Assembly (NCBI GenBank): GCA_964583985.1
Contig: CAZOYD010000006.1
Span: forward strand, 23,858-87,129
Reading direction: 5' to 3'
Source of the DNA: an uncultured archaeon
Lineage (GTDB): Archaea > Asgardarchaeota > Lokiarchaeia > Sigyniarchaeales > SOKP01
DNA: 63,272 nt
The notes below the pieces were generated by a model. It was given only the letters and a program-made list of their open reading frames with translations, had not been told where the DNA came from and ran no database searches. Positions 2 to 24,363 of this stretch are shown piece after piece. Positions within the stretch are counted from its first letter, which is position 1; each line of letters begins with the position of its first letter. Position numbers and translations under genes: made by a program.

Positions 2-91
2 TTTTTATCCTTATATCACGAGATAAAAGAAGAGCTTGAAAAAAGAGAAAAAGAACCAAAAGAAGAGAATCTCAATATTGATACGGAATAA
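2..91 (+). CDS. possible 3' end of an upstream gene (FLSLYHEIKEELEKREKEPKEENLNIDTE*)
   Basis: Open frame from the window edge to TAA at 89-91, with a charged C-terminal-like sequence; no family recognisable. Confidence 0.35.
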   Translation, partial: FLSLYHEIKEELEKREKEPKEENLNIDTE

Positions 92-217
92 ACTGCTAAA
101 TCTAATCTTAATCAGATATCATTTTATATTTCTATAAAAAATCAAAAAAAGAATTTTATTAAAAAATTCTTTATTAATGTATTCTATAGCATAAGATAAG
201 TATAAATTTCAATAAGG

Positions 218-1243
218 ATGTCAAATTCCATGAAAAAAGATGAAGGATTATGTCTTGGAATTGAATCCACAGCACATACTTGGAGCGTAGGTATAGTTGA
301 TTTCAGTGGGAATGTTCTTGGTTTGCATAATAACATGTATACACCCGAGGAAGGGGGGCTTCATCCCGCATTGGTGAGAGAATATCATGTACTAAATTTT
401 AAAGACACGATCCTGAGTGCATTACAAGAAGCGAAATGTTCCATGAAGGATCTATCATTAATTGCTTTCAGTCAAAGTCCAGGTTTAGGACCAATCCTTA
501 GAATTGGGGCATTTGTTGCGAGATTATTGAGTCAATTGTATGCGATTCCGATTGTTGGAGTAAATCATTGCATAGCACATGTCGAAATTGGACGCTTGAT
601 GTGTAATATAGAAGATCCGTTAACCCTTTATGTTTCAGGAGGAAATACAATTATTAGTGCTCATGAATCTGGGAGATACCAAATTTTCGGAGAAACGCTT
701 GATATTTCTATAGGTAATATGATTGACATGATAGCTCGAGATGCAGGATTAGCTCATCCTGGAGGTCCAAAAATAGAGAAATTAGCGGCAAAATCTGAAA
801 AATACATTTCATTACCATATGTTGTAAAGGGGATGGATTTATCATTTTCTGGTTTGTATACCGCTGTACGAAATTTAATTGAATCAAGTGATTTTGGAAA
901 AAATTATACTATAGAAGATGTTGCGCATTCGTTACAAGAAACCGGATTCTCAATGCTAGCTGAAGTGACTGAGCGAGCTTTAGCCCATACAAATAAACCA
1001 GAACTACTTTTAACCGGTGGTGTAGCGGCAAACAAGCGATTACAACAAATGATTAAGAGTATTTGTGAGGATCATGGCACGAGATATGAAGTAGTACCTC
1101 TAAAATTTGCCGGAGATAATGGAGCTATGATTGCTTGGACAGGGATCTTACGATATAAATCAGAGGGAGGATTTGAACTTTCCCACACCAACATAAATCC
1201 AAAAGAACGAATGGATAACATTTCAATTCCTTGGCGAAAATAG
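218..1243 (+). CDS. kae1: KEOPS tRNA t6A threonylcarbamoyltransferase Kae1/TsaD
   Basis: LGIESTAHT, HCIAHVEIG (HxxxH), GETLDISIGN and DNGAMIAW motifs. Confidence 0.97.
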   Translation: MSNSMKKDEGLCLGIESTAHTWSVGIVDFSGNVLGLHNNMYTPEEGGLHPALVREYHVLNFKDTILSALQEAKCSMKDLSLIAFSQSPGLGPILRIGAFVARLLSQLYAIPIVGVNHCIAHVEIGRLMCNIEDPLTLYVSGGNTIISAHESGRYQIFGETLDISIGNMIDMIARDAGLAHPGGPKIEKLAAKSEKYISLPYVVKGMDLSFSGLYTAVRNLIESSDFGKNYTIEDVAHSLQETGFSMLAEVTERALAHTNKPELLLTGGVAANKRLQQMIKSICEDHGTRYEVVPLKFAGDNGAMIAWTGILRYKSEGGFELSHTNINPKERMDNISIPWRK

Positions 1244-10618: not shown

Positions 10619-12916
10619 TTACTTTATCGGACGGCTATTAGCCTGGAAAATTGGCCCGATAAATTGACTGTATAATTTAGCGTAAGAAGCTTGGTTGGAA
10701 ACCACGCTTATCATTTCTGATTCATTATCAGTAAATGGACCAATGATAACTTCTTCGGCATCTCGGGTGACAGCATAGAAATCGCCTTGAGTATTAAGTT
10801 GCCTGAATTGAATATTGCCTAAGCTCATCATCTTACGAATGATGTCTCCATATTGGTCCATTGGGAAATGACTAGTAAGCATGAAGCGTGCTGCTTTCTT
10901 TTGAAATGCAAATTCACTAACAACTTGCAAGACTTCTGGAATTACGACTGGTGTCACGATAATAACCGAAGATTTTGTCCTATAAATTGCGTCTTTAATA
11001 GCAGATACCATGGCATCTCTACCAATGACTTGCCAGGTGGTAATCTCAGAAATTTCAGGAAGCGCACTTGATGCATTGAAAATATCTTTTAGTTTATCTT
11101 CATTTTGTTCTGATAATTCCGTTCCATCATCAATTGAATTCATGAATTGGAGCGTAAAATCAGCGATTGCATCCTTGATATTTTGTGCGGTGTCCTTGGT
11201 AGTGTTTGATAAGCTATTTTGCAGTGTTTTAGCATTTTCTTCATATTTGGTTTTATGATCACTGAGCATTTCACTCAAGGATCTTTCTAGATTAGCAGAT
11301 TCATCTCCCCATAAACTGATTTCTGCAGTAATTTTATCAGACACATCACGTTTTCCAATAATAAACTTGTCATCAGTATCTCTAATCCAATCTTCTTTAA
11401 TCTTCTTTACATCAGTATCAAATTCTGTATAATGTTTAAGCGAATCATCTTTGTGTCGATTGATTGCTTCATTATATTGCCTATGATGCTGTTTTATCGC
11501 GCTTTCAAGCGAATCTTTTAACTTTATGGTTGTACTGGAACAATCTTTAATTCCGTTTTGCAAGGTATTATCAACTTCACCTGCCATATCTGTTGCTAAT
11601 GTTTCCAACTGCACGTTAATAGTTTCTTGAGCTTTATGATCTAATTCTGTTGTCTCAGTTTCGAGGTTTTGGTTTTCTCTGGAAATAATGTCAGTTACAT
11701 CCTGTTTAATTTCATCAGTAGTATTACGCGTATCTTTTATATAATCTTCAGTTGTTTTGATGAAATCTTCTTTCATTGGTTCGGTGTATTTCAATACGTT
11801 TTGAATTGTTGTTTCATGGCGAGCTTTATATTTCTTCTTCTTTCCCATCCAGAAAAATTTCTTTTTAGCCATATCTTCAGAAAAGTCAGTAAAACGATTT
11901 GCATGTTCAAGGAGATTGTCAATTAAGGTAAGTGTCATGCTTTTGAAATCATTTGATTGATCATTTAAAATGCGATGCCTTTCATCTACTGTCGCTTTTA
12001 AATTAGTCTGAAGAGTATCAGTGGTATTTTTTACGTGAGTAGCGTGTTCATTCAATAGATTAGAGATCCGTTGTTTTAAATCTGAAACTATTTTATCCAT
12101 CCTCTCTAAATATTTCTCGAGAATTTGTTCCATGCGGGGTTTTAAATCATCTGAGATAGTTCGGTGTCGATCCACATGTTCATCAAGATCTTTTTTTAAT
12201 TCTATTTCAATATTTTCGACTCGGTTTGAAAAATCAGATAATAACTCGGCGATTATTTTAGTAATGTTTTCTTTTGTTGTATTGACTTCAGATTCGTTTT
12301 CCTTGATCCTTGCGGTACTAATATTCTTTAAATCTGAATTTAGCACGTTTAAAATTGAATGAATATTTTCTTCAAGGGTTTTTGAGGTGTCAGTAAAGCG
12401 GTTTCGTGCTACATTTATTTTTTCTGCTTTATAATTACTTTTGGTATCAGAATCTTCAAAGAATAGTTTTAATTGTCCATCTACGGCAGTAACTACTTCA
12501 TTTATGCTTTTATCTTGGATTGATTCTAATTTTTCAAACCTATTTGCTTGATCAGCTAAAATCCTATCCTTGATTTGAGCAATCTCATTTCTAAAAATCT
12601 CGGATTCTGATGTAAATAATTCGAAAAATGGTTCAAGCGGAATGTATCTATCTACAATTCCAGGAACATGTTTTAAAAAACCTTTCTCAACGAGCTGATT
12701 TGTTTCTTCAAGAACTTTTTCGTATGTCAACTCCTCATATTGGTCGGTTAAAGTGAGATATACTTCCGAAGAAGTTGCTCTAGGCACTCTTAAATAACCA
12801 AGATATATAAGGATCTGTTCTTCAGTAAATCCATATCGAGTAAACACTTCCTTTGTGAAATCTTTTAAACTCATGAGTATTTCTCCAATATTCTGTTTGA
12901 ATTGAAATGAATTCAA
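10619..12916 (-). CDS. TrmB-like wHTH + long helical/coiled-coil insert + TrmB/PLD-like C-terminal domain (likely start ATG 12874)
   Basis: YGFTEEQILIYL...LVEKGFL...RYIPLEP N-domain; GRDAMVSAIKDAIYRTKSSVIIVTP...TRDAEEVIIGP C-domain; GGAGA SD before 12874. Confidence 0.75.
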   Translation of the reverse strand: MNSFQFKQNIGEILMSLKDFTKEVFTRYGFTEEQILIYLGYLRVPRATSSEVYLTLTDQYEELTYEKVLEETNQLVEKGFLKHVPGIVDRYIPLEPFFELFTSESEIFRNEIAQIKDRILADQANRFEKLESIQDKSINEVVTAVDGQLKLFFEDSDTKSNYKAEKINVARNRFTDTSKTLEENIHSILNVLNSDLKNISTARIKENESEVNTTKENITKIIAELLSDFSNRVENIEIELKKDLDEHVDRHRTISDDLKPRMEQILEKYLERMDKIVSDLKQRISNLLNEHATHVKNTTDTLQTNLKATVDERHRILNDQSNDFKSMTLTLIDNLLEHANRFTDFSEDMAKKKFFWMGKKKKYKARHETTIQNVLKYTEPMKEDFIKTTEDYIKDTRNTTDEIKQDVTDIISRENQNLETETTELDHKAQETINVQLETLATDMAGEVDNTLQNGIKDCSSTTIKLKDSLESAIKQHHRQYNEAINRHKDDSLKHYTEFDTDVKKIKEDWIRDTDDKFIIGKRDVSDKITAEISLWGDESANLERSLSEMLSDHKTKYEENAKTLQNSLSNTTKDTAQNIKDAIADFTLQFMNSIDDGTELSEQNEDKLKDIFNASSALPEISEITTWQVIGRDAMVSAIKDAIYRTKSSVIIVTPVVIPEVLQVVSEFAFQKKAARFMLTSHFPMDQYGDIIRKMMSLGNIQFRQLNTQGDFYAVTRDAEEVIIGPFTDNESEMISVVSNQASYAKLYSQFIGPIFQANSRPIK

Positions 12917-13208: not shown

Positions 13209-13886
13209 ATGAAAAATACACATAAGATTTTAATAGGTATTGTCAGTCTCATGGTACTTTTTTCCTTACTTAACGTAAATTCTGTTGCGGCGCAAGGAAC
13301 CACTCCTCAAGAAATTAATCAAGACACTTACCAGGCAAGGTTAAATGCTTCTGAGCAATATAATTTTAGATTCAGATTGAGAACCCAACTAAGAATAATG
13401 GCTAACGTAAATATTGATTTAGATATAAATTGTGAGCCAATGAAGATTGGGGTCAAAGATTTTGCTATTGAAGTTACAACCAACGAAGATTTAAAGATGA
13501 ACATGACGTGCACCGAAGAACAACTAGAACTTGGATTATTAAATGGAAATACTTATCAAATAAGAAATCGGAATCGATATCAATATAATGAAGGATTTTG
13601 TATTAGAATTCAAACAAATACTACAAATCAAATACAAGCTAAGTTAATGATTCAAGCTACGAATCAAAATCAGGTTGGCACATGGGCTTATTATGAAGAA
13701 ACTACAGGAGAATGGGTATCAGTCCCAACTACAGTTGAAAACGGATATTTAGTTGCCAATGTTGATCATTTTTCATATTGGACAATTTTAATTCCAGATT
13801 ACACGCTCGCGATAATTATCGGTGTTGGAGTAGGAGCGGGTGCTTTGATTGCAGTATTAGCGATTTATTATTGGAAGAAGAGATGA
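13209..13886 (+). CDS. secreted, C-terminally membrane-anchored surface protein
   Basis: N-terminal signal peptide, beta-rich domain ending VDHFSYW, TM helix followed by KKR. Confidence 0.8.
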   Translation: MKNTHKILIGIVSLMVLFSLLNVNSVAAQGTTPQEINQDTYQARLNASEQYNFRFRLRTQLRIMANVNIDLDINCEPMKIGVKDFAIEVTTNEDLKMNMTCTEEQLELGLLNGNTYQIRNRNRYQYNEGFCIRIQTNTTNQIQAKLMIQATNQNQVGTWAYYEETTGEWVSVPTTVENGYLVANVDHFSYWTILIPDYTLAIIIGVGVGAGALIAVLAIYYWKKR

Positions 13887-13976
13887 GACATTAGTATTTA
13901 ATTACCATTATTTTTTTTTATCTTTTAATTATCAATATTATTAAAATATAGTTGAGGTTGTTCGATTATTCGTAAA

Positions 13977-15221
13977 ATGATGAAAAGAGAAAATAAAACA
14001 GCGATTTTTCTTATATCATTTGTAGTAATATTAAGTTTAAATCTATACCTCAACACGGTTACTGCTCGTGATGTAGATGTTCCTGGTTTCTCTACTAATG
14101 ATTCAATAAATGCAGGTGAAACAGTTAATTATCATTTCTCTAATAATATTCTTTTAAGCATTAGTACCAATGTTTCCATGGATCTTGACGTTGATTATGA
14201 AAACCGCATTCAAAACAAGCAAATTCACTTTTTCATCAACAATAGCAATCCTATATACTTAAACATCACTTCAAAAGAAAATATAGGAAATTTTGGAGTA
14301 AGTAAAGCCCCACAAGATCCAAATAAAGGAGGCATTCAGTATCAAAATAAATATAATTGTATAGTGATGATTACAACTAATGTCACCATTGAAAATATGG
14401 TAATTCGAAGTCTAAAAGGTTCTCAATATGGGTTTAGTTTGAATACACAATATTCAATCGGAGTTTATGAGCCATCCAGTGAATCTTGGAAAATTCTTGA
14501 AACACGGGAACAACTAAACGAATCTAACTCAGAATTGTATTTAGAAACGTCAATATCCCTTCTTAATGCTAGCACGGCATATTATTTTACTTACTTTGAA
14601 GAAAGCATTATTAATGATAATTGGATTTGGATCTCATTTTACGTCATTCTCTTTAGTGGCATTATCGCTGTTGTAATTGTAATTTCTAAAAGTGATTACA
14701 TGCAATATTTAAAAATGCGAACCGTTTCAATCGAAAAGGGTGCCCATCGCTTAAGTTTGGAGGACGTATTAGAAAATAAAAATAGGGATAAAATTATCGA
14801 ATTAATATTAAATGAACCGGGAATTCATTTCAATGAGTTATTAAGAAAAACAGAACTCGCTGCCGGAAATTTAGTCTGGCATTTAGATATTCTTGAAACC
14901 TATAAAATAATTGGAAAGAAGCGAGTTGGTAAATTTATCGTCTACTTTCCATATTATCATAAAAATCCCATTTCAAATATAGATTTAAAATTAAGTAAAA
15001 GTAAATTAACGCTCGAAATATTAGAAATGATAGAGGAAGAACCAGGATTATGGAATAACCTAATTACTAAAAAATTAAAAGTAGACCATAAAACTATTCA
15101 TTATCATATTAACAAATTAAAAGAATTGAATCTCATACGTTTTCAAAAGGATGGACGTAAAAAGAAATTTTTCCCAAATTTAGATGCAGATTATTTCAAT
15201 GAAAAGAATCAGTTAGATTAA
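13977..15221 (+). CDS. membrane-anchored transcriptional regulator (ectodomain + TM + double wHTH)
   Basis: Signal peptide; TM WIWISF...VIVI; LENKNRDKIIELI..EPGIHFNELLR...WHL..LE and a second wHTH EEPG...IHYHINKL. Confidence 0.85.
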   Translation: MMKRENKTAIFLISFVVILSLNLYLNTVTARDVDVPGFSTNDSINAGETVNYHFSNNILLSISTNVSMDLDVDYENRIQNKQIHFFINNSNPIYLNITSKENIGNFGVSKAPQDPNKGGIQYQNKYNCIVMITTNVTIENMVIRSLKGSQYGFSLNTQYSIGVYEPSSESWKILETREQLNESNSELYLETSISLLNASTAYYFTYFEESIINDNWIWISFYVILFSGIIAVVIVISKSDYMQYLKMRTVSIEKGAHRLSLEDVLENKNRDKIIELILNEPGIHFNELLRKTELAAGNLVWHLDILETYKIIGKKRVGKFIVYFPYYHKNPISNIDLKLSKSKLTLEILEMIEEEPGLWNNLITKKLKVDHKTIHYHINKLKELNLIRFQKDGRKKKFFPNLDADYFNEKNQLD

Positions 15222-23073: not shown

Positions 23074-24363
23074 TTAGCTATCTTCTAATCGTATTACATT
23101 TTCCAAATAGGTTTTCGCTTGCTCCTTTTTAGCATCAGTTAACTTACAGTCTGTGATGTTCCAAAAGCGGTATTCATGATTCATATAAGCAGGACATTCT
23201 TTACGGATTTCCTCCGGGCAATCTACAATCTGCCAACATTGGAAAATTTCTTGTTCATAATATGTATGAAATTTTTTTGGCAGTTTTTTGTAATCAAAAT
23301 TAGTTTCGCGTAGAAATGAATCCAAATCGTTCGAATTGTACGTATTCCAGAACAACACGTTTTTCGATTTATTTTCCTTTTTTGCAAGAAAATCTAGCAT
23401 AGCAGCTGCGGTTTTTCCCGTATACGTTGTTTCTAATTTAAACCCTCGCTTTTTACCTTCTAATTTCTCAATTAAATCGACCGCATTCTGGCTCCTAATT
23501 GTTTTAATTCCATATTCAGAACCAAGATATCCCTTTATCATCGTAAAATCTTCCTCAGTTACTATGATATCAGGAATTGACTTATCTCTTTTTCTGAGAT
23601 ATTTAATCGCTTTATTTGCTATGTTTATTAAGGCTTTAGGACTAACAACAATATCTCGTGAAACGTTGACAAACATTATTTTTGTCTTCAGACCTAAAAG
23701 TTTGCAACCTGCTGTCAAACCTGCTGATGTTCCCGTGGATCCTGCCGCAACAAAAATCACGTCTGGTTCAGGCAAGATTTTTTGATCTATTTGTTTCTTG
23801 AGTTCACACATGGCATTTATGAATCCAATAGATCCCAAGGGTGATCCAATACCAAGCAAAGGGGAGCCGCCTATTGACATGAGATAATATTTTGGATGAA
23901 AAAATCTGTAGAGAAGGCTTTTAAGTATCCCCAATTCAAAAATTTTTGTGAAATGCAATTTTGCGCCAAAATAATCGTATAATAACAAAGATCGCTGCAC
24001 ATGCCAAGTAAGTGGTTGTAAGGACAAAAATAGGTGACACTTTAACCCAAATTGTTTAGCGATAATTGCACAAGCTATACCATGATTGGTTCCAATACCA
24101 CCAAGCGTGATGACGCCTTTCTTCTTTTTCTTTACTATTTCTCCAAAGATGAATTCAAACTTTCTCAGTTTATTACCACCATAAATCTCATGATCTTTAT
24201 CATCTCGCTTGATGTAGATTTTACCATCGTTTAATTTCAAGAATTTTTCTAATTCTGTCAACTCATTAACATCAGAAGGTATTTTCGTTAATATTGGCGT
24301 CCAAGGAACTTTTCCTTTCAAATTAGGATAAAATTCAAATAGCATCGGTCTAGAGTTTTCCAT
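23074..24363 (-). CDS. PLP enzyme, D-cysteine desulfhydrase/ACC deaminase family, with a Cys/Trp C-terminal extension
   Basis: IKRDD...YGGNKLRKFEF, GSTGTSAG, ETTYTGK. Confidence 0.9.
   Translation of the reverse strand: MENSRPMLFEFYPNLKGKVPWTPILTKIPSDVNELTELEKFLKLNDGKIYIKRDDKDHEIYGGNKLRKFEFIFGEIVKKKKKGVITLGGIGTNHGIACAIIAKQFGLKCHLFLSLQPLTWHVQRSLLLYDYFGAKLHFTKIFELGILKSLLYRFFHPKYYLMSIGGSPLLGIGSPLGSIGFINAMCELKKQIDQKILPEPDVIFVAAGSTGTSAGLTAGCKLLGLKTKIMFVNVSRDIVVSPKALINIANKAIKYLRKRDKSIPDIIVTEEDFTMIKGYLGSEYGIKTIRSQNAVDLIEKLEGKKRGFKLETTYTGKTAAAMLDFLAKKENKSKNVLFWNTYNSNDLDSFLRETNFDYKKLPKKFHTYYEQEIFQCWQIVDCPEEIRKECPAYMNHEYRFWNITDCKLTDAKKEQAKTYLENVIRLEDS

Follow-up and report, generated by a model that had tools for sequence, protein, structure and literature searches.

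TrmBL2 is an archaeal chromatin protein that coats DNA independently of sequence and forms filaments (PMC8707338). The Thermococcales protein (TK0471; PDB 5bpd, 5box, 5bpi, 5bqt) has approximately 264 residues, and a single helix links its winged helix to a phospholipase D-like (PLD-like) domain. A second described relative is TrmB of Pyrococcus furiosus, a sugar-sensing regulator (PDB 3qph, 2f5t) with a short coiled-coil helix and a sugar-binding beta-barrel. Here we describe a protein from an uncultured Asgard archaeon (Lokiarchaeia, Sigyniarchaeales) that has the two domains of TrmBL2 in the same order, likewise without the barrel, and that carries a fold-back coiled coil of approximately 520 residues in place of the single helix. 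Its gene lies at 10619-12874 on the minus strand of a 63,272-nucleotide stretch of DNA (the window), which corresponds to positions 23,858 to 87,129 of contig CAZOYD010000006.1 (assembly GCA_964583985.1). Residue numbers refer to the 751-residue protein; those of a preliminary description of this locus run 14 higher.

Three independent lines of evidence, namely arm lengths in orthologues, structure prediction, and structural alignment, make the fold-back topology and geometry of the rod close to certain. The outward arm (aa 83-336; 11867-12628, minus strand) is one continuous helix of 22 unbroken hendecads with a net charge of -10. The return arm (aa 351-603; 11066-11824, minus strand) is also one continuous helix, with hendecad periodicity and a net charge of -22. 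Between them lies the apex motif KKKFFWMGKKKKYK (aa 337-350; 11825-11866, minus strand), which contains the helix break. The midpoint of the helical region (83-603) is residue 343 and the centre of the motif is 343.5; by chance, a unique strongest basic window would lie 5 residues or less from the midpoint of a region of 520 residues in approximately 2% of cases. The preliminary description had reported this motif at exactly the same nucleotides (aa 351-364 in its numbering) and had placed it almost exactly at the midpoint of an acidic helical region, in agreement with our analysis.

Orthologues of other lengths, obtained from a representative search and a genome scan (38-92% identity), provide the first line of evidence. 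The N-arm was counted from P82, where the winged helix ends, up to the motif glycine, and the C-arm from that glycine to the first tryptophan of the C-terminal domain. The resulting N/C pairs were 262/270, 266/270, 272/285, 301/313, 302/310, 310/314, 317/321, 328/332, 372/376, and 416/420, so that the two arms are equal within 4-13 residues while the N-arm ranges from 262 to 416 residues. Insertions after approximately aa 165 are mirrored by equal insertions after approximately aa 511, symmetrically about the motif. The larger steps in arm length are multiples of 44 residues, that is, four hendecads or approximately 6.6 nm (orthologues P0122-P0127, L074, L088, and L092). The motif therefore stays central in homologues of differing arm length, which is the test that the preliminary description had proposed.

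Structure prediction and structural alignment point to the same arrangement. The AlphaFold2 (AF2) model of the 751-residue protein, with a mean predicted local distance difference test score (pLDDT) of 77, consists of a helix at 83-337, a break at 338-345 (FFWMGKKK), a helix at 346-603, and an alpha/beta domain at 613-749. In the model of a 1050-residue orthologue, the central break is at 492-495, inside its own motif. The hairpin in these models was judged from the residue ranges of structure alignments (VIA), not from coordinates. Residues 165-515 align with a chemoreceptor hairpin (305 of 309 residues), residues 239-438 with the Maxi antifreeze hairpin, and residues 81-598 with a cohesin coiled coil (7ogt_B, Z 13.6, 313 residues), and all three ranges are centred near residue 340. 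For the 1050-residue model the hairpin alignments cover 77-904, 93-887, and 253-725, all centred near residue 490. Several matches to winged helices and PLD domains cover both ends of the chain (e.g., 6..605 and 73..746); therefore, the two head domains sit together. At 0.15 nm per residue, the 255 residues of each arm give a rod of approximately 38 nm. The earlier interpretation as a tether between DNA and membrane has thus stood in its geometry (an antiparallel hairpin of approximately 38 nm with the motif at its apex and the TrmB halves reunited at its base), and has been weakened at its DNA end, as discussed below.

The rod itself has a regular and strongly conserved sequence. Its hydrophobic periodicity is 3.65-3.67 residues (11/3), with autocorrelation peaks at lags 11, 22, 44, and 66, and the N-arm keeps a single hendecad register through its 22 repeats, with hydrophobic residues at positions 1, 4/5, and 8/9. 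Only two to three or so of every 11 positions are hydrophobic, which fits the seam of a two-helix coiled coil. The orthologue in the genome that carries P0115 is 72.4% identical without insertions or deletions; for the same genome pair, identity is 72.9% in the neighbouring M24 peptidase and 65.9% in a nitroreductase, and it drops to 57% and 50% in two further neighbours. Conservation across 116 orthologues is highest at the tip (column majority frequency 0.97) and reaches the same level in the arms as in the end domains. Since this conservation is on a par with that of the neighbouring enzymes, the rod is not a freely drifting spacer. At least ten histidines are invariant in the rod (H172, H233, H237, H277, H280, H324, H353, H463, H474, and H540), several of them at hendecad core positions. 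An invariant cysteine, C445, is close to an invariant pair, Pro246 and Gly441, that face each other across the hairpin, and pLDDT falls distal to this point. The region may be an elbow or a pH- or metal-sensitive site.

The end domains define what kind of protein carries this rod. The N-terminal domain is a TrmB-type winged helix-turn-helix (aa 1-82; 12629-12874, minus strand), delimited by AF2 secondary structure and by profile and structure matches. The C-terminal alpha/beta domain (C-domain; aa 604-751; 10622-11065, minus strand) corresponds to the PLD-like N-subdomain of the TrmB effector domain. In a Pfam search, the 751-residue protein itself did not match TrmB (PF01978), its sole match being a sub-threshold one to Apolipoprotein. 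When Pfam, NCBIfam, and PDB sequences were searched with the protein or narrow clade profiles, all matches were periodicity-driven (apolipoprotein, ZorA tail) and none fell on the end domains. The homologues P0127, P0151, and P0152 (20-40% identity) do pass the PF01978 cut-off, and a family-wide N-terminal profile (A6) has TrmB 3qph (E 7e-10) and TrmBL2 5bpd (E 7e-9) as its best PDB matches. In the AF2 model, the winged helix aligns with those of Fur, MecI, and MarR (VIA Z of approximately 11). The label "TrmB-like" in the preliminary description is thus borne out by family profiles and structure, although Pfam is blind to this sequence alone.

For the C-domain, the link to TrmB is drawn from structure matches and from Pfam matches in homologues. 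The closest structural match is P. furiosus TrmB, which is also the best profile match for the winged helix: the domain superposes on residues 110-242 of 2f5t_X with a VIA Z of 18.1 and a root-mean-square deviation of 2.0 Å over 131 residues, and on 3qph with a Z of 17.7, compared with 15.4 for TrmBL2 5bpd. The top Foldseek matches of the model are TrmBL2 and TrmB (TrmBL2 E 1e-7), and the fold also matches the PLD-family nucleases Nuc, NucT, and Zucchini (Z 12-15). PF11495 (Regulator_TrmB) is matched by 7 of 21 family C-domains, with a best E of 2.6e-6; a C-domain profile did not reach TrmB among PDB sequences. The HxK(x)4D (HKD) catalytic motif is not present in the domain, where H669, in the context S-H-F-P-M-D, is the sole histidine of aa 604-751. 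Residues conserved across the family are P642, G686-N687, R704-D705-x-E707-E708, and S726. The sugar-binding beta-barrel subdomain of TrmB is absent, as the chain stops at aa 751 and the 2f5t and 3qph alignments end at chain residue 242; compared with TrmB, the window protein ends before the barrel and a giant hairpin replaces the short helix. Because it combines a winged helix with a catalytically dead PLD-like domain and ends where the barrel would start, it is by homology a TrmBL2-type protein.

Judged from its sequence, DNA binding by this head is doubtful. At the aligned position of the recognition helix, TrmB has YNRVYD and TrmBL2 has APRTYD, whereas the window protein has YEKVLE. The R-x-Y-D signature common to TrmB and TrmBL2 was not found in the recognition helix (aa 51-63): the arginine position varies within the clade and the tyrosine is lost. 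The net charge of the helix ranges from -4 to +2 across the family and is mostly acidic over the whole Asgard family, and the winged helix of the window protein carries a net charge of -6, versus approximately 0 in TrmBL2 (counted from the alignment). The wing is conserved as K-x-x-P-G-x-V-x-R-Y with a nearly invariant R76, as are R29 and R32 within this clade. Contacts of the head with the DNA backbone are possible and sequence-specific reading of DNA is unlikely. The loss of R-x-Y-D and the acidity of both helix and winged helix weaken the DNA end of the proposed tether, and anchoring of the chromosome is therefore one possibility among several.

The apex offers a clearer chemical signature. 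Aromatic residues embedded in lysine runs are classically associated with peripheral binding to acidic membranes, as in the targeting peptides of MinD and FtsA and the effector domain of MARCKS. No other 15-residue window of the protein is as positive as that of KKKFFWMGKKKKYK (+8), and FFWMG, which is predicted to be an exposed loop between lysine runs, is the lowest and hence most interface-seeking 5-mer of the protein on the Wimley-White interfacial scale (-4.33 kcal/mol). Orthologue tips keep the aromatic pair, the glycine, and the basic run in one of two forms, GFF[WF]xGKKKK or [GS]A[FW]K[AS]L[FL]xGKHK, the latter being four residues longer. The tip and 20 flanking residues on either side are almost invariant, and remote clades of Heimdall and Jord type have weaker F-x-G-K/R elements near the midpoint. 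Membrane binding is a plausible function of the tip and the best reading of its chemistry and conservation. The tip of this genome reads KKKFFW, in comparison with KKGFFW in nearly all orthologues, and this replacement of glycine by lysine (aa 339; 11858-11860, minus strand) adds a positive charge.

The role that we favour, tentatively and with a little less than even confidence, is that of a TrmBL2-like head on a fold-back stalk, whose membrane-binding tip holds the cargo of the head at a fixed distance. The winged helix and the dead PLD-like domain, joined in TrmB and TrmBL2 by one short helix, are here joined by the insertion of approximately 520 residues. This insertion almost certainly forms an intramolecular antiparallel two-helix hendecad coiled coil of approximately 38 nm with both head domains at one end. 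The exposed apex loop (GFFW-x-G flanked by 8-9 lysines) would bind peripherally to the anionic cytoplasmic face of the membrane, with its aromatic residues inserted into the interface and its lysines bound to acidic lipid head groups. Oligomerisation of the head, of the kind found in TrmBL2, may add avidity. The protein would hold its cargo, perhaps DNA or chromatin contacted through the wing and the backbone, or else a protein partner, at a fixed distance from the membrane that differs between lineages. This distance would be set by arm length, and arm length changes in matched steps on the two arms.

Several observations weigh against this role. The recognition helix has a net charge of -2 and the winged helix an overall charge of -6, so that a DNA cargo is uncertain. 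Of 45 representative family members, only 10 have their strongest basic or aromatic window at the rod midpoint, and the hyperbasic aromatic tip is therefore specific to this clade. A transmembrane scan found no transmembrane segment at the apex of long-armed homologues, and an operon partner hinting at a membrane or chromatin process was not conserved in the four lineages checked. In the AF2 model, pLDDT is below 50 at the apex and only 60-67 in the distal half of the rod. Covariation within the 751-residue clade is ambiguous: mutual information with average product correction (116 gap-free orthologues) is enriched at i+j of approximately 681-690, which is the antiparallel register, and similarly enriched at j-i of approximately 332, the latter driven by a few hypervariable columns. 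Covariation was consequently not used as support. The cross-correlation of column conservation between the arms peaks at many registers and speaks neither for nor against the hairpin.

One alternative, which we consider unlikely, is that the tip binds nucleic acid (DNA or RNA) and the head either binds DNA or forms oligomers, so that the rod would bridge DNA segments approximately 38 nm apart in the manner of an SMC protein without ATPase or of H-NS. TrmBL2, the closest homologue, is an abundant non-specific chromatin protein (PMC8707338), and the lysine runs and aromatic residues of the tip, the most basic window, would also fit nucleic-acid binding. However, a contiguous exposed F-F-W-M cluster is a more usual feature of membrane-inserting than of DNA-binding loops, the orthologue tip SAWKALFLGKHK reads like an amphipathic membrane-targeting peptide, and the DNA-reading helix of the head is acidic.

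A protein-protein hook is an explanation to which we likewise give only a small probability. The apex would either dimerise tip-to-tip, in the style of the Rad50 zinc hook or the SMC hinge, or dock onto a partner, giving double rods of 76 nm or a lattice. A specific interface of this type would be expected to show a near-invariant tip with near-invariant 20-residue flanks, as is observed, and the rod surface is unusually conserved for a spacer, which suggests lateral contacts. Yet the apex has neither a CxxC motif nor a hinge domain, its +8 loop would repel a second copy, and no conserved neighbouring gene offers itself as a partner.

We consider it quite improbable that the protein acts as a functional transcription factor bearing a sensor stalk, in which the hairpin would relay a signal (the state of the membrane or a partner) from the tip to the DNA-binding head or the factor would be sequestered at the membrane. 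TrmB ancestry favours this explanation, as do the alignment of 305 of 309 residues with the cytoplasmic hairpin of a chemoreceptor and the gene neighbourhood. Divergent to the rod gene, at 13209-15221 on the plus strand, lie genes for a 225-residue protein without a Pfam match and a 414-residue protein with HTH_HVO_0163 and HTH_24. This pair of membrane protein and helix-turn-helix regulator is kept within Lokiarchaeia, including the genome with the 72%-identical rod protein, where the pair itself is only 50% and 57% identical; outside the class the synteny is lost. The acidic recognition helix without the DNA-contact signature of the family and the missing sugar-binding subdomain speak against a regulator. 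Moreover, the family spans total rod lengths from approximately 84 to approximately 1530 residues, a spread more in keeping with a ruler than with a relay.

A coat resembling apolipoproteins or phasins, in which the 11/22-residue amphipathic repeats would lie flat on lipid or granules and the hairpin would be a lipid-free storage form, is highly improbable. It would account for the clear 11/22-residue periodicity and for the sub-threshold matches to Pfam Apolipoprotein A1/A4/E and to apoA-I chains of the PDB; these matches are explained by the shared periodicity, and that to PF01442 reaches 36.8 bits against a gathering threshold of 90. The sparse hydrophobic positions fit a coiled-coil seam, not a broad lipid face, and the strict matching of arm lengths implies selection on the paired state. 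We also rejected a role of the rods as radial spokes that would fix how wide cell protrusions are, as the one width checked, approximately 340 nm in Hodarchaeales cultures, is at odds with a rod of 38 nm.

The C-domain family is widespread in the phylum. Its profile matches 195 of 200 species genomes, including 83 of the 85 high-quality ones, usually with 1-7 copies per genome and in open frames of up to approximately 2000 residues. Named members all belong to Asgard groups (Loki/Promethearchaeia, Hel, Hod, Heimdall, Jord, Baldr, and Atabey). The genome described here has five copies; the four further paralogues are L009 (G000:C13), L010 (C114), L011 (C94), and L012 (C21), and a basic-aromatic midpoint was found in none of them. 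In three of these paralogues, the winged helix, a rod of approximately 250-300 residues, and the C-domain are followed by an extra tail of approximately 150 residues. Two C-domain-only relatives, P0214 (284 residues) and P0236 (322 residues), have C-terminal transmembrane segments, and the C-domain is thus coupled to membranes in other architectures, an indirect hint in favour of membrane binding by the tip. P0214 is tail-anchored, with KRRRR after its transmembrane segment, and P0236 is polytopic; another relative, P0169, fuses the C-domain to TPR repeats. The atlas clusters are labelled "hypothetical", and members of the family are annotated only in this way or, wrongly, as sugar regulators. 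Our search of the literature on Asgard TrmB/TrmBL2, coiled coils, and nucleoid-membrane tethers found no paper describing this architecture.

When an operon partner was sought in four lineages, no neighbouring gene was conserved across classes. In two distant lineages, a gene for a tRNA_bind (PF01588) protein of approximately 110 residues adjoins the rod gene, but on a different side in each (L004:4629-4955, Jordarchaeales, and L007:8327-8659). It is not adjacent to the rod gene in the window, and its recurrence may be a coincidence.

The gene boundaries differ slightly from those first proposed. The preliminary description took the open reading frame 10619-12916 (minus strand) as the gene; this frame exists, and the coding gene within it (10619-12874, 751 codons plus the stop codon at 10619-10621) begins 14 codons further inside. 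The start lies at the ATG of 12874-12872 and not at the TTG at 12916, since over 100 homologues, which all come from metagenome bins of Asgard archaea (Promethearchaeota), begin at Met15 of that frame. The sequence also has a Shine-Dalgarno-like GGAG (12883-12886, minus strand) 9-12 nucleotides upstream of this ATG.

The spatial organisation of cytoplasm and nucleoid with respect to the membrane in Asgard archaea is still an open problem, with a bearing on eukaryogenesis. In this family, symmetric insertions into the two strands of a hairpin have made a long structural element out of a small transcription-factor scaffold, a process that can be read from the sequences, and the whole rod is under purifying selection of the strength seen in enzymes. 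Should the tip bind membrane and the head chromatin, this would be the first candidate nucleoid-envelope tether from the archaea most closely related to eukaryotes; with any other cargo at the head, the protein would still be an undescribed membrane-anchored spacer. A broader proposal, which we regard as rather doubtful, is that Asgard archaea possess near-universal, multi-copy, ATPase-free "molecular rulers" derived from a TrmBL2-like chromatin protein, whose lipid-inserting tips would hold chromatin-bound heads approximately 38 to more than 110 nm off the membrane. Such rulers would serve these prokaryotes, the closest relatives of eukaryotes, as a functional counterpart of lamina or LEM-type tethering of chromatin to the envelope.

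Beyond the TrmB group, the arms of SMC and Rad50 proteins are the nearest analogues, as they also are intramolecular antiparallel coiled coils of tens of nanometres that unite N- and C-terminal domains at one end. The rod of the window protein differs in being built from hendecads instead of heptads and in having no ATPase head, hinge, or zinc hook: Pfam and NCBIfam gave no match at E<=1 to an ABC ATPase, SMC_N, a hinge, or the Rad50 zinc hook, and there is no cysteine in the apex. SMC and Rad50 are therefore analogues and not homologues. In its architecture, the window protein resembles an SMC-type arm that lacks an ATPase and carries a putative lipid-seeking apex. At the tip, the targeting sequences of MinD and FtsA and the effector domain of MARCKS likewise place a short aromatic or aliphatic run within lysines and arginines, and some orthologue tips, among them KRGSAWKALFLGKHK, are similar to the amphipathic peptide at the C-terminus of MinD. 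The MinD peptide is terminal, whereas the putative membrane element of the window protein is internal, at the turn of the hairpin. RacA of Bacillus subtilis links the chromosome to the cell envelope through a helix-turn-helix head and a long parallel coiled coil, and docks on DivIVA, not on lipid. It is unrelated in sequence to the window protein, and the combination of a helix-turn-helix head with a long coiled coil makes it a functional analogy only.

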